64,000 nucleotides of DNA from a virus (lineage: Duplodnaviria; Caudoviricetes). Shown here one piece after another: positions 38,509 through 61,540 of the stretch; within the stretch, counting starts at the first letter, position 1, and each line of letters begins with the position of its first letter. Both the position numbers and the translations under genes were made by a program. The notes below the pieces were generated by a model that searched no databases, was not told where the DNA came from, and saw only the letters and a list, made by a program, of their open reading frames with translations. Where the stretch lies: IMG/VR virus record IMGVR_UViG_3300020195_000410, positions 1,972 through 65,971 of that record. One strand, written 5' to 3'.

Positions 38509-41500
38509 CTAATAAGAGAGGATATCATCACCTTCGCTTAGTTCGTCTGCTCTTTTCCAAGTTTCATCAGTTAATTTAAACTTGTGCCAAGGTGTGCATT
38601 TGACAACAGATCCATCATCCAATGGTATTTCATAAGTTTGAATTTCTCCATTTACATACAATCTTGTAACATTTTCTATTTCATTGTTTTCGTTTAAAAT
38701 CAAAAGAGGTTTTTTTAATTCCAGCCATTCTTTATTCATGTTTTTAATTTCATCAAACGAATATCCTTGGTCTTCAAATATTTCCAAAAGTGTAAATGAG
38801 CCTTCAGATGTTTTTATTTTTGTGTTGAATTCAAGACATCCTGCTGGCTTAACACATGTGGCACGGGCCGTTGGATTGATGCCGATCTTCAGGGCAATCT
38901 CTTCATTGACATCCAAGATCAGTTTGGCCATCTTCTGTTGAAGATGTGAATCAAACAGAACGCCGGGATTATCCATCATCCCCGTGATGGAGACGCCTAA
39001 CAATGCTTCACGGCAGAGAATCTTTCTGGTTGTTGGTCCGAGATAATCCAGATCAACATATCCAGCTTGACATGTACCAATGATCGCAGCAGCCTTGGAT
39101 GCAACTGCGTAATCTTCTTCGCTCTTGCAGTAACGCCCATTGATCTCACAGAGATTGCACGCTTCCCAGCCTGTGGCTCCAGTCTCAATATCGACAGGAT
39201 ACAAACCGATTTCAACGCAATTATGTGCATACACGCCATTTGCATCAAACGCATGAACTTCATCAATTGTGCAATCGTAAACTGGCAAACGACCTATCAG
39301 TTTTTTGTTGATTATCTTGTCTGTGAATTTGGATCGGTTTGGAGTTCTAGCATATCCATCAACAATTTGTTGAATTTTTTGTATCTTATCTTTGTTTCGA
39401 ATTGGAATCATTTTTTGAAATTCTTGGATATTATCACAAGAAATACACAATTCATGAGTTGCTTGACAATGATACAACTTCATTCCACCTTGACCATCAG
39501 GCATAAGGCGATCACCTTCTGGATAACGATCATTATAAATTTTGGAAAACACTCCAAAACTATTAAGAATGATTTGTAGGTTTTTAAGGTTGTTTTTGTT
39601 TATTGATGTTATTCTTAAAGAACAGCCTTTTTGATGATTTACACAGACTGTGCCATCGGCATCGAAATAGCCTGCCACCAATCCGGCCAAATACCGCCAA
39701 TCACCAGCCAGTGCTTTTACGTCAAGATGTTTGCCGTCTTTAAGGCAATTTTTAGACTCAGCAAATTTACTTAACTGTGTAGATTGTAAACAACTATAAA
39801 CAGAAGAATTTTCTTGTGCGTCCTTATGGTGTGGCGATCTCCATCCTGCGTTTTCCAACAAAGACAAAGCATCAGACCGATATTCTTCTCTGTTTTCTCC
39901 CCACCACTTCATCTCAGATGTGTTATCGACTAGATTTCCATCAGAAAGTAAATGCCCTAAACAATAGCCCCTTGCAAAGCTCTCTCGATCTGCTTCAAGC
40001 CATTTAACCTTTCGCTCTGTACTTGCACGCCATTCACCAGAACGATGGTTATGAATCACCACGTCGTCTTCAAATGTAATATCTCCAGATTCCTTCCACC
40101 CATCAGTTGTTAACAACTTGTGGTTTGTCGTCAATTTAAGAGTTCTTCCTGAATCAAACTCTAATTCAATTACATCTTTTACATCAGTTTTCCAAAAACC
40201 ATTTATTGATGATTTGTGTGGTTTTCCATCTACTAAAGCAATGAATTGTTTAGAAATCAAATTCTCTACTAATTGAAGTCCGTCGTGAGTTGATACAACT
40301 GTATCAGCCGTAACGCATGGATTTACCACGAGTTCTGTGCTATCTGACCAGACGAATCCGGGTTCTCCGAACTCACGAACGTAGCCCATCAACTTCTGGA
40401 AATCTTCCTTGCTGGTCTTGCCACGCAATAGAAGTGCTGAGTTGTTTGAACGACCACGCTGTGGGTTCTCAATGAACCAATTGCCGATCTTGGCTGTAGC
40501 CATCTCTTCATCATCTGGAGAGAACAAGCAGATTGTGGCCGAACGACGGACGCCGCCAGACAACACGGCATCTGAAGCGTGCATCACGATGTCGTATGCG
40601 TCAATTGGACGCAGGGCCTTCTGGCCATTCATGACACACTTGTTGAGTACATCACGAATCTTCTCCAATGCTCTCATCAACGGTTTTGGGCCGGGAGCCT
40701 TGCCAGATGATGAACCCAATGGAGCACCTTCCGGTCGGATCAAACTGTAATCGAACACAACTTCTGTGCCTTGGTATTCTGGAAACTCTCCGTCCTCAAA
40801 ATACGCACTCAACAGGACGCCGAGAGAATCAGACCAACCCTCAATGGAGTCTGGAATGATGTATACCTTCTTTGTTGTTTGAGATGTTTCTTTTGCCCAA
40901 ATAGAATCAAATTTTGGCAATTTTGCAATGTGATGCTTCTGTACAGAGAAGCCAGTCCCGCAACCGCACAACAATAACCAAAAACACTCTTGAAAGAATC
41001 TCGATCGATCACAATATGATGCAATACAATTTCCAGTCGGTAATCCAAACGGCAACATGAATGATTGATCATCTTCAACTTCAAGACACCAAACAGAATC
41101 AACACGAGAATGTTCGATACTTTCAACACGGAATGACTTTGCTGTCTTGCCAAATGCCGTGACGATATTGAATTTAATTGTTATATCTGATCGGAAGCCA
41201 AAGTTTGTTTCTTGTCCTGTCAGATCTGTTTCGGAAACGATATAAACTCCAGCAATTGGAAAACATTTCCTGATGAAATCTACAGATTTCTGCCCAGTAG
41301 CTTGGATTGAATCATAAGGCGACAATTTGCCATGTGATGCACCAACTTTATAACTACGACTCTTTGTCCCATCTGCGGTTAAATAACCACTCACAAACGC
41401 TCGTATCATCTCTGGAGAGTCAACGCTTGGATCAGGCAAAGTCTTTAGATATTTGCCAGTGTAGGCGATAACATCTCCTTCTAATGAAGCAGAAGAGCTG

Positions 41501-42216
41501 CTAATAAAACCATGTTCCAAAAATCTGTCTTCGTATTTTTCTTCTGCACCACACAATCTAACCCCAGACCAACGATGTTCTCCGTTCTGGTCTTTGTAGA
41601 GAGTTCCATCGCCATAAGTGTAGCCATAACACCAATACAATCTCTCCATTGGATTGGCATTTTCATAAACAAAATCAGAAAATACTGTTGGCCCAAAAGT
41701 AAGCTGGTCTTCTTCTTGCAAATTATCAGTAATTTCTTGATTTTTCAAAATCCAACGATGATTTTTCGTGGCATAAATATCATAAGGATCTCCGCCACGA
41801 ACAACAGATATCTTATAAAGACAATCTTCCCCATAACATCTTACAATCGCTTTTTTCCAATTCCCTAAATGAGACATGACAGTGACTTTATCACCATCTT
41901 GGAAATCACAAAAACTTTTCACACCTTCAGATGTAATAAACTCTGTTTCCCTACCCAAACAATTGTAGATTCTGGCATTCTTCTTGAGGATCGGATCACC
42001 GCCAAATTGTAAGGCTCTCTGCGAACCAAGAACCTTGCGTTGTTTCACTTGTTCAAAAGCCCAAGTGATGTCCCGCTCGATTTGCGGATACCTTTTGATG
42101 TGCATATCTCGCACACGATCAACAGCCTCTGCCCACGTTTCTCTTCTTTTCTGTTCCGGCAAGTAGCGGGCGTACTTACTGGCAAATGTGTAATCTTGTA
42201 ATGCTTTAACCGACAT
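38509..42216 (-). CDS. nrdJ: class II ribonucleotide reductase, N-terminal part, with two inteins and a split-intein N-fragment
   Basis: RRETW, SQRALQFGG, LL.G.G.GFSV, GGVRRSA, GEPG, NP|C, KPAG|C. Confidence 0.92.
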   Translation of the reverse strand: MSVKALQDYTFASKYARYLPEQKRRETWAEAVDRVRDMHIKRYPQIERDITWAFEQVKQRKVLGSQRALQFGGDPILKKNARIYNCLGRETEFITSEGVKSFCDFQDGDKVTVMSHLGNWKKAIVRCYGEDCLYKISVVRGGDPYDIYATKNHRWILKNQEITDNLQEEDQLTFGPTVFSDFVYENANPMERLYWCYGYTYGDGTLYKDQNGEHRWSGVRLCGAEEKYEDRFLEHGFISSSSASLEGDVIAYTGKYLKTLPDPSVDSPEMIRAFVSGYLTADGTKSRSYKVGASHGKLSPYDSIQATGQKSVDFIRKCFPIAGVYIVSETDLTGQETNFGFRSDITIKFNIVTAFGKTAKSFRVESIEHSRVDSVWCLEVEDDQSFMLPFGLPTGNCIASYCDRSRFFQECFWLLLCGCGTGFSVQKHHIAKLPKFDSIWAKETSQTTKKVYIIPDSIEGWSDSLGVLLSAYFEDGEFPEYQGTEVVFDYSLIRPEGAPLGSSSGKAPGPKPLMRALEKIRDVLNKCVMNGQKALRPIDAYDIVMHASDAVLSGGVRRSATICLFSPDDEEMATAKIGNWFIENPQRGRSNNSALLLRGKTSKEDFQKLMGYVREFGEPGFVWSDSTELVVNPCVTADTVVSTHDGLQLVENLISKQFIALVDGKPHKSSINGFWKTDVKDVIELEFDSGRTLKLTTNHKLLTTDGWKESGDITFEDDVVIHNHRSGEWRASTERKVKWLEADRESFARGYCLGHLLSDGNLVDNTSEMKWWGENREEYRSDALSLLENAGWRSPHHKDAQENSSVYSCLQSTQLSKFAESKNCLKDGKHLDVKALAGDWRYLAGLVAGYFDADGTVCVNHQKGCSLRITSINKNNLKNLQIILNSFGVFSKIYNDRYPEGDRLMPDGQGGMKLYHCQATHELCISCDNIQEFQKMIPIRNKDKIQKIQQIVDGYARTPNRSKFTDKIINKKLIGRLPVYDCTIDEVHAFDANGVYAHNCVEIGLYPVDIETGATGWEACNLCEINGRYCKSEEDYAVASKAAAIIGTCQAGYVDLDYLGPTTRKILCREALLGVSITGMMDNPGVLFDSHLQQKMAKLILDVNEEIALKIGINPTARATCVKPAGCLEFNTKIKTSEGSFTLLEIFEDQGYSFDEIKNMNKEWLELKKPLLILNENNEIENVTRLYVNGEIQTYEIPLDDGSVVKCTPWHKFKLTDETWKRADELSEGDDILSY
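38512..38838 (-). mobile_element. split intein N-fragment (109 aa)
   Basis: KPAG|CLEFNTKI...CTPWHKF...WKRADELSEGDDIL then stop. Confidence 0.85.
39220..40317 (-). mobile_element. intein 2 with LAGLIDADG endonuclease (366 aa)
   Basis: NP|CVTADT...HLLSDG...GYFDADG...VYAHN|CVEI. Confidence 0.92.
41029..41961 (-). mobile_element. intein 1 with LAGLIDADG endonuclease (311 aa)
   Basis: IYN|CLGRET...T.NH.W...YGDG...YLTADG...LPTGN|CIAS. Confidence 0.9.
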
Positions 42217-48413: not shown

Positions 48414-48487
48414 GGTGATGTAGACCAATGGCAGGAGTCGCCAGCATGAGAGGCTGGACAGTGTGGGTTCGAATCCCACCATCACCA
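48414..48487 (+). tRNA. tRNA-Leu(GAG), short variable loop
   Basis: ggtgatg/catcacc; ccagc-atGAGag-gctgg; ttcgaat. Confidence 0.85.
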
Positions 48488-48493
48488 CTAGAT

Positions 48494-48567
48494 GCCCAAG
48501 TAGACCAACGGCAGGAGTCGTCAGTTTCAAAAACTGAACAGTGTGAGTTCGAGTCTCACCTTGGGTA
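48494..48567 (+). tRNA. tRNA-Leu(CAA), short variable loop
   Basis: tcagt-ttCAAaa-actga. Confidence 0.85.
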
Positions 48568-48570
48568 TAT

Positions 48571-48644
48571 GGCACCGTAGACCAACGGCAGGAGTCGCCA
48601 GCATCAGAGGCTGGATAGTGTGGGTTCGAATCCCACCGGTGCTA
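48571..48644 (+). tRNA. tRNA-Leu(CAG), short variable loop
   Basis: ccagc-atCAGag-gctgg. Confidence 0.85.
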
Positions 48645-48655
48645 CTACAAATTTT

Positions 48656-48735
48656 GGAAGTGCTGCTGTGTGGGAACAGGCCGTCGCTGTAACCGACGTG
48701 TCTCTGACTAGGGGGTTCGATTCCTCACACTTCCA
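48656..48735 (+). tRNA. tRNA-Tyr(GTA), atypical D-arm
   Basis: cgtcg-ctGTAac-cgacg; ggaagtg/cacttcc. Confidence 0.75.
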
Positions 48736-48744
48736 CTGATGATT

Positions 48745-48828
48745 GCCCATGTGGTGAAACAGGTAAACGCACATGTTTCAAAAACATGCCTCTTAAGTGA
48801 GTTGCAGGTTCGATTCCTGCCATGGGCA
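48745..48828 (+). tRNA. tRNA-Leu(CAA), long arm
   Basis: catgt-ttCAAaa-acatg. Confidence 0.9.
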
Positions 48829-48832
48829 CTAT

Positions 48833-48920
48833 GGATTAGTAACTCGACCGGCGTCGGGCACTGTTTTGAAAACAGTTGGAGCTATGAGAATAGCTTGGGG
48901 ATCGACACCTCACTTCTCCG
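48833..48920 (+). tRNA. tRNA-Ser(TGA), atypical (6-bp D stem, two acceptor mismatches)
   Basis: actgt-ttTGAaa-acagt; ctcgac-cggc-gtcggg. Confidence 0.7.
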
Positions 48921-48952
48921 CTTGTTGATCTTTGACAACTTGGATATGATAC

Positions 48953-49026
48953 GGCACTGTGATGCAATTGGCAGACATCTTCGACTTAAAATCGGGGTTC
49001 TGTGGGTTCGATGCCCACCGGTGCTA
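48953..49026 (+). tRNA. tRNA-Leu(TAA), short variable loop
   Basis: ttcga-ctTAAaa-tcggg. Confidence 0.8.
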
Positions 49027-49030
49027 CTTT

Positions 49031-49115
49031 GGAAGATAAACTGGCTAGGTCGGCCAGCACGGTTTGCTAAACCGTTGGTCCCTTCGGGGATGAGAATCGT
49101 GTTCTCTGTCTTCCG
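49031..49115 (+). tRNA. tRNA-Ser(GCT), 8/4 fold
   Basis: ggaagata/tgtcttcc 8 bp; T stem gaga/tctc 4 bp; acggt-ttGCTaa-accgt. Confidence 0.8.
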
Positions 49116-49122
49116 CTTGATT

Positions 49123-49207
49123 GGAGGAATAACCTGACAGGCGTCAGGCACCGTTTCGAAAACGGTTGGAGCTATAATGGCTTGGGGTTCGAGACCTCAT
49201 TCCTCCG
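49123..49207 (+). tRNA. tRNA-Ser(CGA), 6-bp D stem
   Basis: accgt-ttCGAaa-acggt; cctgac-aggc-gtcagg. Confidence 0.8.
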
Positions 49208-49213
49208 CTTAAT

Positions 49214-49297
49214 GTCCAAGTGGCGTAATTGGTAGCCGCAACAGGTTGAGAGCCTGTCGCCGTCATAGGCGTGGAGGTTCGACTCCTCTCTTGGACA
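49214..49297 (+). tRNA. tRNA-Leu(GAG), long arm
   Basis: acagg-ttGAGag-cctgt. Confidence 0.9.
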
Positions 49298-49300
49298 CTT

Positions 49301-49387
49301 GGAAGATGAACTGGCTAGGTCGGCCAGCACTGCTTGGAAAGCAGTTGGTGCCCTGTGTGGCATGGGAATCGTGTTCTCCGTCTTCCG
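49301..49387 (+). tRNA. tRNA-Ser(GGA), 8/4 fold
   Basis: ggaagatg/cgtcttcc; actgc-ttGGAaa-gcagt. Confidence 0.8.
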
Positions 49388-49388
49388 C

Positions 49389-49496
49389 TTGCAACTTGTT
49401 CTCCCTAACAACTATGGGACCGGGGGAGCGTGAATACAGGTTCGAAGTCTGGCCTGCGGCTGCACAAGCTAATGGCGAGTCCCAGACAAGTTGCAA
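49389..49496 (+). ncRNA. candidate pseudoknotted ncRNA between tRNAs
   Basis: 11-bp closing stem ttgcaacttgt/acaagttgcaa; loop tgggac complementary to gtccca. Confidence 0.55.
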
Positions 49497-49500
49497 AATT

Positions 49501-49587
49501 GGAACAATGGCAGAGTGGCTTAATGCACCGGTCTTGAAAACCGGAGATCTCGCAAGGGGTCCGTGGGTTCAAATCCTACTTGTTCCG
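49501..49587 (+). tRNA. tRNA-Ser(TGA), canonical
   Basis: ccggt-ctTGAaa-accgg. Confidence 0.92.
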
Positions 49588-49597
49588 CTGAAAAATT

Positions 49598-49684
49598 GGA
49601 GTGATGGCAGAGCGGCTTATTGCACTCGCTTGGAAAGCGAGAGTCCCCGAAAGGGGACCGGGGATTCGAATTCCTCTCACTCCG
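49598..49684 (+). tRNA. tRNA-Ser(GGA), canonical
   Basis: ctcgc-ttGGAaa-gcgag. Confidence 0.9.
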
Positions 49685-49688
49685 CTTG

Positions 49689-49979
49689 ATGGAATATAAC
49701 TTTGACAACTTTTTCATAGAAACTGTTGCCAACTTTACTCGATGCGAATTACCAGATCGAGACCCAGACTTCTTTTCGTTCAGCGGATCGACATACTGGG
49801 ACTGCGGTGATAAAGTAATACGCTGGAGTAATCACTGGGGAAAGAACATCAGCACTTGTTGCTGGTATCTGGACTTCAAAGAATTGAAGTTACAGAACTC
49901 CTTGGCTGGCTGCTGTTACTACGAAGATTTTCGACACAAAAGGAATTTACTAGATGGATACGAAAGTAGTTCAGATTGA
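49689..49979 (+). CDS. hypothetical protein
   Basis: MEYNFDNFF..., SGSTYW...RWSNHWG. Confidence 0.65.
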   Translation: MEYNFDNFFIETVANFTRCELPDRDPDFFSFSGSTYWDCGDKVIRWSNHWGKNISTCCWYLDFKELKLQNSLAGCCYYEDFRHKRNLLDGYESSSD

Positions 49980-50094
49980 GCTTACAGAAAGCGACATCAA
50001 ACGAATTCGTGCGAACCTTGTAGTAGATTGTTTTGTCACTCTGGACAATGGCCAAAAGGTACTTGTCAGGATGACTAAAGAGGACAAGAAGTAA
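49954..50094 (+). CDS. small hypothetical protein (46 aa)
   Basis: Hand-translated MDTKVVQIEL...; AAGGA RBS. Confidence 0.5.
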   Translation: MDTKVVQIELTESDIKRIRANLVVDCFVTLDNGQKVLVRMTKEDKK

Positions 50095-50151
50095 TGATGA
50101 ACTGGATTTTGATTCGTGATGGTCCGTGGACCTCCTATTCGGAGGTATTTC

Positions 50152-50427
50152 ATGGACATCACAAAGATCTGGTTGTCGCAGAGGAATCTGCGTCGTGCTG
50201 GGCAGATCCCGGCAATGATTGAAACTTTGTGTGAAGGCGGCGTACTGCCACCAATCACACTGGCTCGATGCGAGGATGGAGAAATCCAAGTCGAGGACGG
50301 CCACCACCGCTTGACTGCCATTTGGCTGTCAGGCAGAACTGATCTGGACGATCACGAGTATTTCGTGGTAGAAAAAGATCAGTGGAAGCCAAGAGTCGGA
50401 AGACTCTCAGTACAAAAATTGGAATGA
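50152..50427 (+). CDS. ParB/Srx-like N-terminal domain protein
   Basis: LPPI...EDGHHRL; GGAGG RBS. Confidence 0.7.
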   Translation: MDITKIWLSQRNLRRAGQIPAMIETLCEGGVLPPITLARCEDGEIQVEDGHHRLTAIWLSGRTDLDDHEYFVVEKDQWKPRVGRLSVQKLE

Positions 50428-50428
50428 C

Positions 50429-50501
50429 GGGTCGTAAGCTAATCTGGTGAAAGCGATTGCCTGAAGAGCAATAGAGGTTGGCTCGAAACCAACACGACCC
50501 A
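50429..50501 (+). tRNA. tRNA-Phe(GAA), atypical
   Basis: attgc-ctGAAga-gcaat; T loop ctcgaaa. Confidence 0.8.
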
Positions 50502-50503
50502 CT

Positions 50504-50582
50504 GGTTGCTCGATAATAGCTAAGTATCCCTACTGTCGATTGGTGATGGGGTGAAAACGGCTACCAATCTTGTCGAGCAACC
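50504..50582 (+). ncRNA. candidate pseudoknotted ncRNA between tRNAs
   Basis: ggttgctcgataa/ttgtcgagcaacc stem; gattggt complementary to accaatc. Confidence 0.55.
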
Positions 50583-50587
50583 TTTAT

Positions 50588-50662
50588 GGTCAGTGAGCTA
50601 GTACGGTTATTCAGCGTATGCCTGAAGAGCATAAGAACTCGGTTCGACTCCGAGACTGACCA
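50588..50662 (+). tRNA. tRNA-Phe(GAA)
   Basis: tatgc-ctGAAga-gcata. Confidence 0.85.
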
Positions 50663-50878
50663 CTGTGGCTAAATGCCACAAACTTTTCTCGTTCATTTGG
50701 AATCACGGTGATTCCTTTTGTCCGCTTCGGCGGAATGCAAAATGCGAAGTGTGGAACCTTGTAGGGGAAGCATGGGAGAGGAAATACATCATGATTCTTT
50801 TCAGACATGAGGAGCGATAATGAAATATCGACCGCAATTCTTTCCGTAACGCAATAGTGCGTTTTTGGAGAGAACAAC

Positions 50879-51211
50879 ATGGGAAGGTATCGTCAACATC
50901 GACGCCCAAGAACAACTCAAGAGCGTCGTGAGAACGGGAAACGCAACTCCATCGACTTCGATGGATACAAGGTGAAGATCAGAGCAAGCCGCAACATGAG
51001 CAATCTTGTTGAAGCTTGGGATGACATCAACAGGAGCAGTTCTGAGGATCGCTCTTGGAAGAAGTTCAGGAAAGAACAGTACAGACCAAGAGATGTTCTC
51101 GAAGGGAAGACTGTTGGTCAATTGCTGATTGAAGGTCTTGAAGAATTCCTTAAAGATCTGAAGTCTGGAATTGATTTGGACACAAAGTATCGAATCACGA
51201 GATTCGAGTAG
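50879..51211 (+). CDS. basic hypothetical protein
   Basis: 110 aa; GGAG RBS. Confidence 0.65.
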   Translation: MGRYRQHRRPRTTQERRENGKRNSIDFDGYKVKIRASRNMSNLVEAWDDINRSSSEDRSWKKFRKEQYRPRDVLEGKTVGQLLIEGLEEFLKDLKSGIDLDTKYRITRFE

Positions 51212-51233
51212 GCAGGGGCCGAAAGGCCCAAAT

Positions 51234-51306
51234 CGGGCGTAAGCAACTGTGGTCAATGCGTCGGTCTGAAAAACCGAAGAATCTGGTTCGATCCCAGAAC
51301 GTCCGG
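51234..51306 (+). tRNA. tRNA-Phe(GAA), G73 discriminator
   Basis: tcggt-ctGAAaa-accga; cgggcgt/acgtccg. Confidence 0.8.
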
Positions 51307-51307
51307 C

Positions 51308-51437
51308 TTGTGAGAATGTAGAACGGATTACATCTGGATAAAGCGACTTTTCCGAAAGGATTGGTTTCGAGGCAGGTTCAAATCCCGCCAATCAGGAGCA
51401 ATCCTGAAAACGTATCTGTTCAATTCTTGTCTCACAA
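51308..51437 (+). ncRNA. candidate T-loop-containing ncRNA (Y-RNA-like?)
   Basis: ttgtgaga/tctcacaa and gaacggat/atctgttc stems; ggttcaaatcc T-loop; GNRA hairpins. Confidence 0.55.
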
Positions 51438-51441
51438 AATT

Positions 51442-51530
51442 GGAAGCGAGTAGAAGAGGCTATCTTACCCGGTTTGCTAAACCGGCAGGCGGTGAATGCC
51501 GCCTTGCGAGTTCGACGCTCGCCGCTTCCG
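51442..51530 (+). tRNA. tRNA-Ser(GCT)
   Basis: ccggt-ttGCTaa-accgg; long arm. Confidence 0.8.
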
Positions 51531-51542
51531 CTAGGTGATATT

Positions 51543-51794
51543 ATGAGCAAGAAAACTTTTTACAGACAGTGCCGTCTTCAAAGACACAACACCGAAACAG
51601 TCAGTTGGATTCCCTCTGAATTCGCCAAAGTTGGTTGGGTGTTGAGTTTGAAGGACAAAGAAGATTGGACACACGATTGGAAAGTCCTTTCTGCTGGTTC
51701 TGAACATGAAGGTAAGCTTGTAGAAAACCAAGCTCATAATTCAGGAAACATCTGGGAGCCGAGTGCCTTACTTACTACCAGAGGAAACAAGTAA
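51543..51794 (+). CDS. hypothetical protein
   Basis: MSKKTFYRQC...; AGGTG RBS. Confidence 0.65.
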   Translation: MSKKTFYRQCRLQRHNTETVSWIPSEFAKVGWVLSLKDKEDWTHDWKVLSAGSEHEGKLVENQAHNSGNIWEPSALLTTRGNK

Positions 51795-51977
51795 CTTGGA
51801 ACAAGAAATCAAATGTCCTTTTTGTGGTCGAAAGAAAGCTGTCGTGAAGCAAGATGACTATGTTTATCTCTGCACTCATTGTGACAAGCTGTTCGATCCC
51901 AGAGAGGATTAACAAGGAGGATATCATGCGATACGAACACGAAGAACAACCGAACGAACAGTCCTGCTTTCGAAACG

Positions 51978-52145
51978 ATGAGTAAGAGACGTAAAGGTTT
52001 CCCATCAGAAACGAAGGTCAAACGTGGCGTGAGAATCGTTCACGGAACAAAAGAACTATACGAGAAGCTCGGACGTAATGATTTGTGTCCGTGCGGAAGC
52101 AACAAGATCTACAAGAAGTGCTGTCTACAGTCAGGCCGGTTTTGA
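51978..52145 (+). CDS. SEC-C motif zinc-binding protein
   Basis: [20 protein letters not shown] (below the ORF-track cutoff). Confidence 0.85.
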
Positions 52146-52207
52146 TGGCGTACTCAGACATGACTTTTTTTAGGGAATAAACTTCCAGAGGGTTTCGGCC
52201 CTCAAAT

Positions 52208-52291
52208 GCCGTCGTGGTGTAACTGGTAGCCACGCTAGACTCAGAATCTGGTGCCCGTAAGGGCGTGGAGGTTCGACTCCTCTCGACGGCA
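52208..52291 (+). tRNA. tRNA-Leu(CAG), long arm
   Basis: ctaga-ctCAGaa-tctgg. Confidence 0.92.
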
Positions 52292-52306
52292 CTTGGAGAC
52301 AATGTA

Positions 52307-52567
52307 ATGAATGATGTTGAATTCATGGATCGAGTTCAGCTAAAAGCCGAAGTTAGAAGACTTCGGCAAGAGCAAACAGAAGTTCGTCAGATAACGCAAG
52401 AATGGTTGAATCAGCAAGGACACAATCGTTGCTGGTATTACCCAGAACTATTTGCTAAACTGGCGGAGACTTTGGGACTTCAAATTACGGTCGATCCGGC
52501 TTTGCCGCCGAGACCAGAATTTGAAGAAGGTTGTCGGAAATTCCAGAACGAGGAATTCGGATCATGA
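52307..52567 (+). CDS. hypothetical protein
   Basis: QGHNRCW...LPPRPEFEEGC. Confidence 0.65.
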   Translation: MNDVEFMDRVQLKAEVRRLRQEQTEVRQITQEWLNQQGHNRCWYYPELFAKLAETLGLQITVDPALPPRPEFEEGCRKFQNEEFGS

Positions 52568-52666
52568 GAAAGAAATATCGGGACTACTGCATCAGTTGTA
52601 GCCCATCGCAGTGTCGGCCTTGCATGGTCGCTGCGGTGGGAGCAACTTACCATGCAGGAGTCCAAG

Positions 52667-52954
52667 ATGAAACGATGGCACGAAGAGTATTCTCGCACTC
52701 ACCGAGAATGGAAGAAGCACTACCTTGTTCATGTTGAAAGCAACATCAACTACAATCGTGATCCCTTCAAGATCGACTGTATTTGTGATCAACAAAAAGG
52801 TCGCTTCAGGAAGATCAAGAATTTAGACTGTGGCGTTCCTCAATGTTGGTTGTGTCACAGCGACAAATTCCCTGTGAGAGAAAAGACAAGAAAAGAACTG
52901 ATTGCTGATCTCAAGTTGGAAGAAGGAATCTCAGAACTGAAGGGAATCGAGTGA
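52667..52954 (+). CDS. hypothetical Cys-rich protein
   Basis: CIC...GRFRK...DCG.PQCWLCH; AGGAG RBS. Confidence 0.65.
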   Translation: MKRWHEEYSRTHREWKKHYLVHVESNINYNRDPFKIDCICDQQKGRFRKIKNLDCGVPQCWLCHSDKFPVREKTRKELIADLKLEEGISELKGIE

Positions 52955-53118
52955 TGTCAATCAAATACGTTGTGATGAAGGTGAAAGTATCTGGCGACTT
53001 TGAGGTCGCCAGATTTGACACCGAAGAGAAGGCTGAGGAAAAAGCCAAGAGTCTGGCGTCAGCCGATGTGTCTGGAACTGTTGAGTTCTACATTCGGAAG
53101 ACATGGACAAACAAATAA
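52954..53118 (+). CDS. small hypothetical protein (54 aa)
   Basis: TGATG overlap; hand-translated. Confidence 0.5.
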   Translation: MSIKYVVMKVKVSGDFEVARFDTEEKAEEKAKSLASADVSGTVEFYIRKTWTNK

Positions 53119-53123
53119 CAAAC

Positions 53124-53205
53124 GGGTCGGTATGCAAGTGGCTAAAGCAGCCAGACTGTAAATCTGGTCTCTCCGAGTTCGGGGGTTCGAATCCCTCCCG
53201 GCCCA
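53124..53205 (+). tRNA. tRNA-Tyr(GTA), canonical
   Basis: ccaga-ctGTAaa-tctgg. Confidence 0.92.
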
Positions 53206-53215
53206 CTGTTTGTAA

Positions 53216-53305
53216 GGGGAAGTCTGCTGAGTGGGATCAGCACCTTGGGTCGTAACCCAAGGCGTCATTGATCAAGACTAGGAGGTTCAATTCCTCGCTG
53301 CCCCA
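53216..53305 (+). tRNA. Tyr-like tRNA with 8-nt anticodon loop
   Basis: ccttgg-gtcgtaac-ccaagg; body resembles the 48656 tRNA-Tyr. Confidence 0.6.
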
Positions 53306-53320
53306 TTTGAAAGACATGAA

Positions 53321-53548
53321 ATGAGCAAAGCATCTGACCTTCTTGACGACTATGTTCTTTTCATTCCTGATTGCTACAAAGCACCATGGACTAAAGTTGG
53401 TCCGGGAGGAATGATTGAAAAGATGTCTCCTGAAAAAAGAGAGATCTTGAAGACTTTGAAGTCAGAAGATTTGCAAAATGTGCGGCCTGATTCGACGTGG
53501 ATTTATCAAAAGCCACAAGGAAAAGGTCGCTGGGGAACTAGAAGATAA
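53321..53548 (+). CDS. hypothetical protein
   Basis: 75 aa ORF. Confidence 0.55.
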   Translation: MSKASDLLDDYVLFIPDCYKAPWTKVGPGGMIEKMSPEKREILKTLKSEDLQNVRPDSTWIYQKPQGKGRWGTRR

Positions 53549-53571
53549 TTGAAGATGTGTAGTCTTCAAAT

Positions 53572-53652
53572 GCTCGTGTGGTGAAACGGCAGACACGCCA
53601 GACTTAGGATCTGGTGCCGAAAGGCGTGTGGGTTCAAGTCCCTCCATGAGCA
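53572..53652 (+). tRNA. tRNA-Leu(TAG), long arm
   Basis: ccaga-ctTAGga-tctgg. Confidence 0.92.
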
Positions 53653-53729
53653 CTAAGGATTGAACGGCTCCAAAAATTGTACCAACCTTCTTTGTCACAG
53701 CAAGGAGGTACAACCAAAAGGATAGTGAG

Positions 53730-54926
<1,197 letters not shown>

Positions 54927-55021
54927 ACCAATCGAACAAAGACGTTAAAAAGTTGACGATAATTTCAGAGGCGTCATCTACGTTGGCCGAAGTACAAGGC
55001 GTCATCTTTGTTCGATTTCAT

Positions 55022-55094
55022 GGCTCGGTAGGCAAAGGCAGACCACAAACATTTAGAATGTTTGATGCTGTGGGTTCGAGTCCCACCTGAGCTA
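55022..55094 (+). tRNA. tRNA-Leu(TAG), short variable loop
   Basis: aaaca-ttTAGaa-tgttt; ggctcgg/ctgagct. Confidence 0.8.
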
Positions 55095-55108
55095 CTTTGG
55101 AGAAAAAC

Positions 55109-55354
55109 GTGAACTATTTCAACACGATGATGTCGCTCAACAACTTGCAAATTTTGTTGAACACATTTCAATTGGGGTTCTTGTACAACGCTCTTGTGCG
55201 AAGATTGAGTGTTGTTCCACATCCACCGGATACAATTTATCCAGTGATATTGGCGTGTATCGGCATTGTTCTTTACATTCCGCTATTTGTAACAAGACAA
55301 CAATTGTTGCGTCGAAAGAACAAAGATGATACATCACAGATTGGCCACAAATAA
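55109..55354 (+). CDS. small membrane protein
   Basis: Hydrophobic segments; GGAG RBS before GTG. Confidence 0.5.
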   Translation: MNYFNTMMSLNNLQILLNTFQLGFLYNALVRRLSVVPHPPDTIYPVILACIGIVLYIPLFVTRQQLLRRKNKDDTSQIGHK

Positions 55355-55535
55355 CGAACAACATTTTGGGGTCAATGTGAACCATGAAAAGACTCGTGTT
55401 TTGCTTCAGCTAGGAGACGGGATGGAGCAAGTGCGAGTGCAGTTGACGGCAGATGAGGTTGATCAAGTCATCACTCATCTGCAACAACGAAGAGAAGAGA
55501 TTAGGCCCAGCGAACAGCTTGGCCAAGAAGATTGA
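55326..55535 (+). CDS. hypothetical protein
   Basis: 69 aa ORF. Confidence 0.5.
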   Translation: MIHHRLATNNEQHFGVNVNHEKTRVLLQLGDGMEQVRVQLTADEVDQVITHLQQRREEIRPSEQLGQED

Positions 55536-55537
55536 TT

Positions 55538-55618
55538 GTCCAAGTGGTGAAATGGCAGACACGCCAGCTTGAGGGGCTGGTGCCGCAAGGTGTGGAGGTT
55601 CGAGTCCTCTCTTGGACA
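55538..55618 (+). tRNA. tRNA-Leu(GAG), long arm
   Basis: ccagc-ttGAGgg-gctgg. Confidence 0.92.
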
Positions 55619-55669
55619 CTATGTTGACGAGTGTGTTGGTACAAGTGGCAGCAAGCCTCATTGGAGTAA

Positions 55670-56062
55670 TTGCATTATATGTCTACCACAACTGGAAGAG
55701 ATAATGGATTGCTTCCATGCGGACATGAAAAGAAGTATTCCTATTTTCATCCAGCTTTGGTAGGATCTTCTAGGTTTCGCTGTGGCAAGTGCGATGATCC
55801 AAACAGGAATACAAGAGCAATGCAAGAACTAGAACCAGAACAACAGCAATTGCCAAAGAAACCGTGTGTGATATGCGGAACAGAGTTGGAGTGTGCGGTT
55901 CAAGATTGGACCACTTACCAGCCATACAAGGGTGGTGAAATTCAGTTGTTGTTTGGATATGGCTCTTGCAAGTTTGATCTGAACTTGCATGGCACGGTGT
56001 TCCGTGGAATCATCTGTGATGATTGTTCAGAGAAGTTGGTCCAGAAGATGGACCCAAAATAA
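55670..56062 (+). CDS. Cys-rich hypothetical protein (start uncertain)
   Basis: CVIC and CDDC pairs. Confidence 0.5.
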   Translation: MHYMSTTTGRDNGLLPCGHEKKYSYFHPALVGSSRFRCGKCDDPNRNTRAMQELEPEQQQLPKKPCVICGTELECAVQDWTTYQPYKGGEIQLLFGYGSCKFDLNLHGTVFRGIICDDCSEKLVQKMDPK

Positions 56063-56065
56063 TCT

Positions 56066-56147
56066 GGCCTCGTGGTGAAACTGGCAGACACGCATGACTC
56101 AAAATCATGTGCCGCAAGGCGTGAGGGTTCGACTCCCTCCGAGGCCA
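56066..56147 (+). tRNA. tRNA-Leu(CAA), long arm
   Basis: catga-ctCAAaa-tcatg. Confidence 0.92.
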
Positions 56148-56150
56148 CCT

Positions 56151-56462
56151 ATGAGTAAAATCGAAATCCCCGGATTCTATCGCTTCCTCAGAAGGCGAAC
56201 AAGAACCAAAATTCTCAACAAGCAACGTCATGGTTATCGAGGCGTCAAGCAACGATATTCTGTTTGGCGAGCGGAATACAACCAGAAATGGGAAAAGTCC
56301 GACAAAGATCTTGTTGAGAGAATCTGCCGTGACAACGAACTGAATCTCTGTGATTACTTCGTTGGAGACGAAAACGAAAGAACTCCTTGGGAGAAGACAC
56401 TAAATAAACTCAGATCCGCTGGGTTCGGATTGTCCAAGTCACCGATCAAGGAGTTATCATGA
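56151..56462 (+). CDS. hypothetical protein
   Basis: MSKIEIPGFY... Confidence 0.6.
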   Translation: MSKIEIPGFYRFLRRRTRTKILNKQRHGYRGVKQRYSVWRAEYNQKWEKSDKDLVERICRDNELNLCDYFVGDENERTPWEKTLNKLRSAGFGLSKSPIKELS

Positions 56463-56557
56463 TGAAAGTTTTAGATGAATGTATGTGTGCGGTTTGTCAG
56501 GCAGAGCGTCAGTTAATCGAACTGATGAAACAGCTAGAAGCAACAAATAGCTAATAA

Positions 56558-56767
56558 ATGACAGAAGAATGTCCCAAAAGAGAATGTTTCCATTGGATTC
56601 CTCCCGGTGGAGCCGCAGACATGTCTAGGAAGACTCACAAATCCGTTCAGGATGCGTTCAAAGACGGCAAGTGGGTGAGTTTCCCAGAAGGCGGTTGTTC
56701 ATGCACATGGGGGTCATGCAATCGAATTGACCCAGCTAGTGAAGATGATTTTTTTGAACCATGCTAA
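56558..56767 (+). CDS. small Cys-rich protein
   Basis: 69 aa ORF. Confidence 0.5.
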   Translation: MTEECPKRECFHWIPPGGAADMSRKTHKSVQDAFKDGKWVSFPEGGCSCTWGSCNRIDPASEDDFFEPC

Positions 56768-56769
56768 AT

Positions 56770-56853
56770 GGCCTCGTGGCGTAATTGGTAGCCGCACAGA
56801 GCTTAAGCCTCTGTATCCTTGGTGATGTGAGGGTTCGACTCCCTCCGAGGCCA
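56770..56853 (+). tRNA. tRNA-Leu(TAA), long arm
   Basis: cagag-ctTAAgc-ctctg. Confidence 0.9.
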
Positions 56854-56904
56854 CCTTGAATAAAAGTCCACTTTCCATTATCATGGCTCCAACCTTTAGG
56901 AGAA

Positions 56905-59547: not shown

Positions 59548-60399
59548 ATGTCTTTCTTTCAAAACCCATTCACACAAGACTTTATCGCCCCATGGCTGTT
59601 GAGCGACCGTCAATACAACCCAGATTTCAAGTGCCCTCGGAATGCAGGCAGAGGCGATGAGATGGTTGCGTCTTTTGGCGTGGCCCCATTCAACTTGTCT
59701 GGGAACGATTCTGATGGCAATTCAAAAGCTGTTTTGACTATCAGCTTTGCGTTAAACGACACAAAGAACTGGGCAGATCTGGCTGTTACAATTACTGGAT
59801 CATCGCTGTCGGCGATCACTCTCAATGAAGTAGTGACTTCGTTACAAGCAAATGCTGTGTTTGGAGATTTCTTCACAGCCAGAGTCCGAACTGACAACAA
59901 GGTTGAAATCAAACAGATCAAGCCAATCACCAGCATGAAGTTCTTTATTAAGAACGGTCGTGCAGAATCGGTTCTGTTGTTCAACAAGTTGGCTGGCGTT
60001 GCAGAAATGCCATCATTCTTCGAGAGGCACTCAATTGCCAACAGATTCACTTACACAGATAGTCAGAACGCATTGATTGTTCTGAATACTGGATTGAATG
60101 TAGATTCTTCTGTTATCGACAATGCCGTGGATCACAAGGGAATTTCTCTTGGATTTGATCACACGTCTGTCAAAGCTGATTGGCAATTGATCAAAGGCAA
60201 ATCTGGAATCTTCAACTTCCAGAAAATCACTGTTGATGGAAGCGACAGAATCACTCAGATCATTGAGTATTCGGCAGGGTCCGTGGCTGGCGACTTGGCA
60301 AGAAAGATCGCCCACGCTTACACTGGAGCCAACAAAAACCCAAACCAAATTACAGAAATTCCTTATACGTTGCAAATCGTCGATATGATCAATCCGTAA
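59548..60399 (+). CDS. probable virion structural protein
   Basis: 283 aa; AGGAG RBS. Confidence 0.6.
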   Translation: MSFFQNPFTQDFIAPWLLSDRQYNPDFKCPRNAGRGDEMVASFGVAPFNLSGNDSDGNSKAVLTISFALNDTKNWADLAVTITGSSLSAITLNEVVTSLQANAVFGDFFTARVRTDNKVEIKQIKPITSMKFFIKNGRAESVLLFNKLAGVAEMPSFFERHSIANRFTYTDSQNALIVLNTGLNVDSSVIDNAVDHKGISLGFDHTSVKADWQLIKGKSGIFNFQKITVDGSDRITQIIEYSAGSVAGDLARKIAHAYTGANKNPNQITEIPYTLQIVDMINP

Positions 60400-61540
60400 C
60401 AAATTTCTCAACAAAATCAGTTAAATTTGATGTCCAATACGGAATTACTAACAATGGAATATTGTTTTGCGAGCAAAAATCGAATTTTATTTTATCTCGC
60501 ATTTTAGTTTTTTCAAGAATAATTTTAGAGTCAGTAAATCTCATTAGTTTATAATGTTGCTCTCCTTGGTATTCTATTAGTTTTAACAATGTATTGTTTT
60601 TCAGTATGGCAAAATCAAATGGCAAAGATCTTTTGTTTTTACATTCTTTAATCTTAAATTGTCTTTTAAAATCAATATTAAGCAATTTTAATGTATCACA
60701 AATAATTCTTTCACCTTTAGATTCGAAGTTACATTGCGGGCAACCGCTTTTTGTTTTCCCGGTTCTGTTGCTTATAATTGATTGCCACTCATGTCCTTGA
60801 TGACACGTCCACCAAACTTTTTTATGACTGTAATTTGTTACACTGGATGGAATTAAATTTTCATTTTTAGTTGGATGCCATTCTTTTGCAATATCTGGAC
60901 TAAGTTTATTTAAACAATTTGACTCGCACACTCTATGTCCAGAACAAAATGGACATCCGTAATTATTGACTCTATCTATAACTTTTGCCTGCCATTCATG
61001 ATTGCATTTTCCTATCCACCAAACTTTTTTAACGCTTTTAGCAACAATATCAGTAGGAGAAATTTTATTTTTGATTGGATGCCATTCTTTTGCAATATCT
61101 GGATATTTTGTCAACAAACAATTGGAAAAACAAGCTTTTTGATTTGCACAATAAGGACAATTTCTTTTATTTGAACCTGTTCTATTATTTATTGAGGATT
61201 CCCATTCATGTCCACACGCACCTAACCACCAAGCTTTTTTATTGCTATGTCCTGTAATCATTTGTGGCGAGATTGTATTTTTTGTCGGATGCCATTCTTT
61301 TGAAATATCTGGAAATTGTGTTAGCAAACAATTTTCTGAATTAACTCTTTTTCCTGAACAAAATGGACACCCATTATTTGCAAGAGTTCTTTCTTTTATA
61401 ACCATATCAAATTCATGTCCACATTCAGCAATCCACCACACACGTTTATGACTTCCACGTGAAACATCATTGGGATAAATATTATTAAGAGGGTGCCATT
61501 CTTTGACAAGACATGGATGAGTTTCAAGTAAAGTTTTCAT
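60389..61540 (-). CDS. homing-endonuclease-like protein: four zinc-ribbon repeats plus C-terminal PD-(D/E)XK nuclease
   Basis: (KEWHP.KN...WW...C.HEW...R....CP.C) x4; SKGE, LPFDF, IEYQGEQHY; AT-rich. Confidence 0.85.
   Translation of the reverse strand: MKTLLETHPCLVKEWHPLNNIYPNDVSRGSHKRVWWIAECGHEFDMVIKERTLANNGCPFCSGKRVNSENCLLTQFPDISKEWHPTKNTISPQMITGHSNKKAWWLGACGHEWESSINNRTGSNKRNCPYCANQKACFSNCLLTKYPDIAKEWHPIKNKISPTDIVAKSVKKVWWIGKCNHEWQAKVIDRVNNYGCPFCSGHRVCESNCLNKLSPDIAKEWHPTKNENLIPSSVTNYSHKKVWWTCHQGHEWQSIISNRTGKTKSGCPQCNFESKGERIICDTLKLLNIDFKRQFKIKECKNKRSLPFDFAILKNNTLLKLIEYQGEQHYKLMRFTDSKIILEKTKMRDKIKFDFCSQNNIPLLVIPYWTSNLTDFVEKFVTD

Follow-up and report, generated by a model that had tools for sequence, protein, structure and literature searches.

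A phage SEC-C gene predicted to be read through three +1 frameshifts at UUU_Y sites

The window analyzed in this study is a 64-kb stretch of a 65,971-bp virus record in IMG/VR (IMGVR_UViG_3300020195_000410; CheckV completeness, 13%). On its plus strand, at positions 51926-52180, the window carries a small gene for a SEC-C zinc-knuckle protein, and this gene is laid out over successive +1 reading frames. We consider it very likely, from the comparison of the gene with its relatives, that it is the phage copy of a widespread, sporadic bacterial family whose full-length SEC-C protein of about 80 residues needs programmed +1 frameshifting at several UUU_Y sites, three of which are found here.

Layout and conservation of the frame junctions

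The frame changes in this family are named J1 to J4, and the window has J1, J3, and J4. A Shine-Dalgarno (SD) sequence, AAGGAGG (51914-51920), is located 5 nt before the ATG of a 15-codon leader, segment A (51926-51970), which extends from this ATG to the TTT of the first slip site. This site, J1, reads TTT_CGA (51968-51973, in the context TGC_TTT_CGA); C 51971 is the skipped base, and F15 is read as TTTC. The +1 frame after J1 continues as GAA ACG ATG and then as a 55-codon SEC-C open reading frame (ORF; 51978-52145) ending in TTT_TGA. The corresponding segments B and C (51972-52142) encode a basic region at the N-terminus followed by the SEC-C zinc knuckle (C-P-C ... C-C). At J3, TTT_TGA (52140-52145), T 52143 is skipped and F72 is read as TTTT, and segment D (52144-52170) follows in the second +1 frame with nine codons of the pattern D-G-x-x-R-x-x-F-F. 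At J4, a run of seven T followed by AG (TTT TTT_TAG, 52165-52173), T 52171 is skipped and F80 is read as TTTT. Segment E (AGG GAA TAA, R-E-stop; 52172-52180) is then read in the third +1 frame, identical to the frame of the leader ATG. All these features are on the plus strand. When each TTT-Y is treated as a four-base step, 51926-52180 translates into a single product of 83 residues, and the steps number exactly three (residues 15, 72, and 80). An earlier sequence-only reading of this stretch had proposed a three-frame layout, and its coordinates and junctions agree with ours base for base.

Homologues were collected by a scan of one genome per species, in which 583 of the 600 stretches checked were confirmed, giving a family of at least 583 members. 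The best 80 loci, denoted by L numbers, came from Planctomycetota, Acidobacteriota, Pseudomonadota, Chloroflexota, Verrucomicrobiota, and other phyla. They were analyzed together with the window, and the family counts below refer to these 81 rows. The 83-residue reading was aligned to each locus by a dynamic program in which a +1 or -1 change was permitted at any codon. The +1 frame changes in this frameshift-aware alignment cluster at four fixed junctions. The flanks of the 55-codon ORF are conserved as well, upstream as ..C TTT TGA/CGA G.. and downstream as TTT TGA YGG ... TAC TTT TAG RGA RTG A.

J1 connects the leader to the main frame. In 75 of the 81 rows, a leader with its own start codon runs up to a TTT-Y; 6 rows lack such a leader. 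In the unslipped frame (0-frame), this TTT is followed by TGA in 34 rows, by CGA in 33, and by other codons in 8, and many copies share the motif (T/C)(G/C)C_TTT_CGA. J2 falls within the zinc knuckle and separates C-P-C from C-C; 55 rows change frame there, 54 of them at TTT-Y (0-frame codons CAA 45, TAA 6, CAG 1, TAG 1, and CCG 1), and 26 rows, the window among them, remain in frame. J3, before D-G, changes frame in 27 rows, 25 of them at TTT-Y (TGA 18, CGA 7), with 53 rows in frame and 1 unalignable. J4, before R-E-stop, changes frame in 51 rows, and all 51 do so at TTT-Y (TAG 34, CAG 13, CCG 2, TAA 1, TCT 1). The remaining rows at J4 comprise 26 that were called in frame, several of which have a non-Phe residue at this place, 2 that were called -1 and appear by eye as +1 with a shorter tail, and 2 that could not be aligned.

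Natural in-frame versions encoding the same residues are known for every junction; J1 is in frame in L057, and J3 and J4 are both in frame in L007. In the DNA alignment, the breaks appear as single-base insertion or deletion columns against the in-frame relatives. The skipped base is a pyrimidine in all cases, and the resumed codon always begins with GA, AA, or AG. The first pattern indicates that tRNA-Phe(GAA) can re-pair with UUU or UUC, so the +1 re-pairing that had been suggested from the letters of the window is possible at every site. The second pattern indicates that the unslipped codon is a stop if U is skipped, and CGA, CAA, or CAG if C is skipped. The sequence-only reading had also suggested that homologues continue as F-D-G..R..(Y/F)-F, and the natural in-frame loci L021, L022, L076, and L007 read exactly so.

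The coding nature of the shifted frames was measured by the entropy at codon positions 1/2/3. For segments C, D, and E, only the slip-dependent rows were used, that is, the rows in which the segment needs a slip to be reached. Entropy is highest at position 3 for every segment in its assigned frame. The values are 0.54/0.46/1.52 for segments B and C together, 0.88/0.74/1.42 for segment C (55 rows), 0.69/0.47/1.32 for segment D (27 rows), and 0.23/0.14/1.47 for segment E (51 rows). All 44 aligned products share G74 and R82, and conservation reaches at least 90% at D73 and R77. A stop follows straight after residue 83 in 38 of the 51 rows with a slip at J4. A comparison with homologues had been named at the outset as a check on the tail and the TTT breaks; both are kept in homologues, and the +1 frames are conserved. 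The recurrence of the junctions in 80 loci and the coding periodicity of the shifted frames support the earlier view that the three UUU junctions are conserved decoding sites and not errors. Copies from many phyla retain this broken layout, and the breaks therefore look deliberate.

A mechanical rule was then applied to the 75 rows with a leader. Reading begins at the SD-led start, and each in-frame TTT-Y is treated as a four-base step. The rule gives a full-length homologue of 71-91 residues in 62 of the 75 rows, using three steps in 54, two in 7, and four in 1. In keeping with the rule, an ordinary Phe preceding Pro is mostly encoded by TTC (44 cases, against 7 with TTT). A GGAGG-type SD sequence precedes the leader start in most rows. 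The leader length has its mode at 13 codons (19/75) and falls within 10-15 codons in 45 of the 75 rows. Many phyla lack an ATG where the 55-codon ORF of the window begins, and in 13 rows, the main frame is open without any ATG, GTG, or TTG upstream of the conserved S-K-R-R.

Proposed decoding and alternative readings

Translation of the window gene would begin at the SD-led ATG at 51926. At each site, peptidyl-tRNA-Phe (anticodon GAA) would be positioned on UUU in the ribosomal P site and would slip one base forward, onto UUC at the first site and onto UUU at the second and third. Decoding would then resume on a purine-rich codon, GAA, GAU, or AGG, respectively. When U is skipped, the unslipped codon in the A site would be a stop, and slow termination would leave time for the slip. 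When C is skipped, the slip would improve the pairing of G34 from G:U to G:C. The pattern of skipped bases fits these two known aids of +1 shifting, slow termination and a better third-position G:C pair. Three slips would restore the frame of the start codon, and ribosomes failing at any site would release truncated products; in the clade of the window, the 55-residue form could also begin at ATG 51978. It is conceivable that the strong SD sequence and the fixed short leader let a trailing ribosome collide with a paused one. The output would rise steeply with slip frequency, approximately as its cube, so production of the protein would be gated by the state of translation. Site types of this kind have been described: PMC5009743 presents UUU_Ynn as especially +1-prone in bacteria, and Atkins et al. 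list UUU_Y as a shift-prone site type.

The sequence-only reading had further proposed a slow codon after each site and a putative role of product length in reporting translational stress or release-factor shortage. The 0-frame A-site codons in the window are CGA, TGA, and TAG; family-wide, stops are common, and CAA, CGA, and CAG occur too. A slow codon does not seem to be a general feature: CGA accounts for 61 of the 421 Arg codons counted over 16 long ORFs of the window phage and is not rare there, and the commonest J2 codon in other phyla is CAA (45 of the 81 rows). Sense codons such as CAA are often found in the 0-frame A site, and a shortage of release factor is therefore excluded as the common signal.

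Several points weigh against programmed frameshifting at these sites. The slipped product, the efficiency of the slip, and the function of the protein are predictions. None of the runs recorded as RNA contains the stretch. Sixteen ordinary long ORFs of the window include 44 TTT-Y sites. It is also not avoided in 226 flanking ORFs of the carriers, which contain 508 such sites in total, including 23 TTT_CAA and 17 TTT_CGA; these ORFs are pooled from genomes of different G+C content, which makes odds ratios rough, and only the raw presence of sites is used here. Three successive slips at ordinary error rates would give almost no product. No conserved RNA structure was found by RNAalifold in 41 sequences (4 pairs, -0.35 kcal/mol, 0 covarying pairs), and the DNA alignment has no SD-like element by the sites, including none 3 nt upstream as in prfB. 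The mechanical rule fails in 13 of the 75 rows. An in-frame TTT_CCN would over-shift in L008, L021, L050, and L077, and an in-frame TTT_TTC has to stay unshifted in L082; other failures are L009, in which the site is CTT_TGA, and a few damaged or odd copies. Finally, all planctomycete-type copies, including the window, keep the ATG of the 55-residue ORF, which makes slip-free synthesis possible, and databases list this ORF as a 55-residue protein.

The alternative that survives best is built on this last point. It holds that only the 55-residue ORF starting at ATG 51978 is made in the window phage and its planctomycete-type relatives, coupled to the leader, and that the +1 tails are untranslated relics. 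We regard it as unlikely. Without a slip at J1, the leader continues for four codons and terminates at TAA 51983-51985 (51971-51985, plus strand; ORF 51854-51985). This TAA overlaps the start at ATG 51978, a feature that the sequence-only reading did not mention, and ordinary translational coupling is thereby a formal alternative at this locus. The ATG is kept in 38 of the 81 rows, including all planctomycete-type loci, but 43 rows have no ATG at that position, and a single codon, AGT or AGC, decides whether the leader stop and the ATG overlap, a feature that is not conserved. Across the family, the leader stop lies at different places (the 0-frame tails range from 0 to more than 30 codons), which speaks against termination and reinitiation. 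It is true that 26 of the 29 aligned database homologues end at the same final F before the stop and that TTT-Y is frequent in ordinary genes. However, segment D behind the J3 break varies mainly at third positions in the 27 slip-dependent rows, R-E-stop continues in the next frame, and residues D73, G74, R77, and R82 are under the strong conservation described above.

A second alternative is that the frame is restored in another way, by four-base decoding with a special tRNA-Phe, by transcriptional slippage on T runs, or by removal of U from the RNA. This appears very unlikely. The third window site is a run of seven T, which would suit slippage by the polymerase, yet many sites have only three T (TGC_TTT_CGA) and are too short for it, and base deletion from RNA is not known in bacteria. 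The unusual G37 in 5 of 7 tRNA-Phe genes of carrier arrays would suit a special tRNA, but no tRNA is found near 72 of the 80 carrier loci. All three window tRNA-Phe have ordinary anticodon loops of 7 nt, and a special tRNA-Phe with an 8-nt anticodon loop is ruled out for the window. An alternative genetic code was also considered and rejected: reading the SEC-C frame past TGA leads into a tRNA-Leu gene, and the 16 long ORFs use all three stops.

The reading of the breaks as sequencing or assembly errors, or of the gene as a decaying pseudogene, is close to refuted: homopolymer runs are error-prone and the window is from a low-coverage metagenome assembly, but the same breaks occur at the same junctions in 80 independent assemblies, complete chromosomes included, purifying selection is seen in all segments, and contigs from other runs are identical at J1 (runs X3, X4, and X5; 0 differences) and at J3 and J4 (one X5 contig, 52113-52263; 0 differences, 0 gaps), as checked on assembled contigs with a word depth of 8.2 in X1 and about 3 in the other runs.

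The encoded protein, the number of slips, and the genomic context

The 55-residue ORF matches the Pfam family SEC-C (PF02810) with an E-value of 9.9e-9 and 35.3 bits, against a gathering cut-off of 20.4. For this part of the protein, databases contain 1576 relatives at E <= 0.01. The best of them share 75-88% identity, many have a length of exactly 55 residues, and the named ones, such as that of Anatilimnocola aggregata, belong to Planctomycetota. In a profile search against the PDB, only the SEC-C motif of about 20 residues matched (9l6b_C, 1.5e-8; 1sx0_A, 6.9e-7). The C-P-C ... C-C knuckle is shared with other SEC-C proteins (the SecA C-terminus, YecA, and YchJ), including the solved YchJ C-terminal and SecA peptides. 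In contrast, the basic N-terminal part and the D-G..R..F-R-E tail of this family match nothing. One source names the 55-residue proteins YecA or YchJ; this identity was rejected, as the best NCBIfam score is 33.2 bits against cut-offs of 140-158, and the matches span only the last 20 or so model positions. The PHROGs collection gave no family-level match, with phrog_24700 covering the motif only (3.7e-6). The fold of a natural in-frame homologue (L007, 2870-3067) was predicted with 39 natural relatives, and the result is too poor to interpret (mean predicted local distance difference test 56.1, predicted template-modelling score 0.37). The gene recurs in tRNA arrays and beside RtcB and Hen1, and this small basic zinc-knuckle protein therefore probably acts on tRNA, RNA, or the ribosome.

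The number of slips was compared between genes. Exactly three slips are found in 55 of 63 readable genes, in five combinations of sites: J1+J2+J4 in 35 genes, J1+J3+J4 in 14, J1+J2+J3 in 4, J1+F25+J2 in 1, and F25 with a tandem J3 in 1 (L083, on a 532-kb viral record). J4 is absent in 6 of 7 genes with an extra internal site, versus 6 of 55 others (Fisher p = 1e-4, uncorrected for shared descent).

A speculative and rather doubtful extension of programmed frameshifting is that the gene serves as a counter of ribosome slips. Selection would hold the obligatory UUU_Y slips at three, no matter at which positions they occur, and phages or tRNA-array islands may trigger the gene by means of tRNA-Phe with G37. 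The protein would appear only when slippage of tRNA-Phe rises sharply, and the supplied tRNA-Phe would have G37 instead of the modified A37 that restrains slippage. If this is true, infection or tRNA damage would bring on synthesis of the zinc-knuckle protein, together with tRNA supply and repair by RtcB/Hen1.

Five of the seven tRNA-Phe(GAA) genes in carrier tRNA arrays do have G37: two in the window (50429-50502 and 50588-50663) and one each in L057 (298-372), L087 (987-1059), and L089 (1496-1567). The third tRNA-Phe of the window (51234-51307) has A37. Among the listed anticodon loops, Trp excluded, A37 prevails in the array tRNAs that read other codons beginning with U (Tyr, Leu-UUR, Ser-UCN, and Cys); the one exception is a Leu(TAA) at 56770, which has G37. 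Evasion of anticodon nucleases is another possible reason for G37. A BLAST search with the window tRNA-Phe against five carrier genomes returned nothing, and the housekeeping tRNA-Phe of the carriers was not found either.

The distribution of the gene is sporadic: in the phylum of L009 (a Stieleria magnilauensis strain), 201 genomes were sampled and 14 carry it. tRNA genes are found within 3 kb in 8 of the 80 loci, always co-oriented, and 6 of these 8 loci have groups of 3 to 26 tRNAs. In L009 and L011, the gene is located between tRNA-Arg and tRNA-Cys in arrays of 24 and 26 tRNAs. The 32 co-oriented downstream neighbours include RtcB (3), RNA_ligase (2), AAA_33 (3), and Hen1 (1, in L014), and RtcB starts 16 nt downstream of the gene in L047, 16 nt in L054, and 49 nt in L021. 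In the metagenome-assembled genome of an Arenicellales member, L054 (1402-4408), eight tRNA genes and one ORF are followed by the frameshift gene and then by RtcB 16 nt past its stop.

No relative was found in the viral collection with a single-protein query. With an alignment query, two further viral records were found to carry the gene. One of them, the 532,729-bp record with L083, has the gene among 7 tRNAs within 8 kb, with the three slips at other positions: one at the Phe before Pro and two in tandem (TTTT TTTC). This layout means that frame 0 is open across the whole gene. The loci L084, L083, and L085 lie in the first 48 kb of this IMG/VR record, which is classed as a provirus, and together hold at least 35 tRNA genes (26 + 7 + 2).

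In the window, the gene sits between tRNA-Ser(GCT) and tRNA-Leu(CAG) (52208-52292, plus strand, 27 nt past the final stop). It is inside an array of 21 tRNA genes with small ORFs interspersed (48414-56855), all on the plus strand. The array contains tRNAs for Leu (12), Ser (4), Tyr (2), and Phe (3) only; Leu, Ser, and Tyr are the three bacterial tRNA types with a long variable arm, and Phe is the sole addition. The three tRNA-Phe(GAA) genes are upstream of the SEC-C gene on the same strand. The sequence-only reading had placed the SEC-C gene in one operon with them. What is seen is a shared orientation, and two terminator-like hairpins (50664-50680 and 50699-50715, plus strand) come after the second tRNA-Phe. 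A scan of 50300-53800 for sigma-70-like promoters gave 0 sites. The neighbouring ORF upstream (51763-51912, plus strand; 49 codons) ends 1 nt before the SD sequence and has only weak Lar-like and other zinc-ribbon matches, all under the Pfam cut-offs. A complete EF-Tu gene (398 residues, all three EF-Tu domains) is also located within the phage tRNA array at 53730-54926. Elsewhere in the window, a class II ribonucleotide reductase at 38509-42216 (minus strand) is split by an intein with a LAGLIDADG endonuclease domain, and a 382-residue protein at 60389-61540 (minus strand) has four DUF4379 treble-clef zinc-finger repeats (E 6e-72). Other phage-type genes include an SMC-like ATPase and a Metallophos nuclease.

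Significance and comparison with known frameshifting systems

Databases give this gene as a 55-residue protein or miss it, and the frameshift reading therefore bears on annotation. Full-text searches of the literature gave no description of the gene; the GeneTack cluster lists (PMC3711429) could include it. If decoded as proposed, the family would be the first multi-site +1 case in bacteria. Each copy of this accessory gene, which is conserved over many phyla and in large phages, would need between two and four UUU_Y slips, usually three. It would serve as a natural reporter of tRNA-Phe slippage and would sharpen the question of how UUU_Y can be efficient here and harmless elsewhere. It would also tie decoding fidelity to tRNA arrays and RNA-repair operons, both of which are thought to counter defence systems that cleave tRNA.

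Few of the bacterial genes known so far need programmed +1 frameshifting. The textbook case is prfB, with one site (CUU_UGA_C). Similar to prfB, the sites described here would use a +1 slip in the P site onto an overlapping cognate codon, beside a 0-frame stop, and the slip would be needed for the full product. In-frame orthologues exist in some genomes in both cases, and a regulatory reading is plausible for both. The two systems differ in that prfB has a single CUU site, an SD-like stimulator 3 nt upstream, and a known logic in which RF2 reads UGA. In contrast, the present gene has two to four sites that are always UUU, with any of the three stops or CGA, CAA, or CAG in the A site, no SD-like element seen, and no known feedback.

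Several obligatory +1 shifts per gene, often beside stops, occur in Euplotes and in some mitochondrial genes. There, the shifts are a genome-wide habit of decoding, whereas here they would be confined to one small accessory gene in bacteria and phages that are otherwise decoded normally.

The +1 site of influenza A is UCC_UUU_CGU (PMC5009743), and a UUU_CGN motif is described for amalgaviruses (PMC5052127). The influenza A PA-X and amalgavirus sites use the same slip tetranucleotide, and J1 of the window, TGC_TTT_CGA, is near the influenza motif. Those sites are single and of low efficiency and give a minor extra product, whereas the serial sites of the SEC-C gene would be obligatory for its only conserved product.
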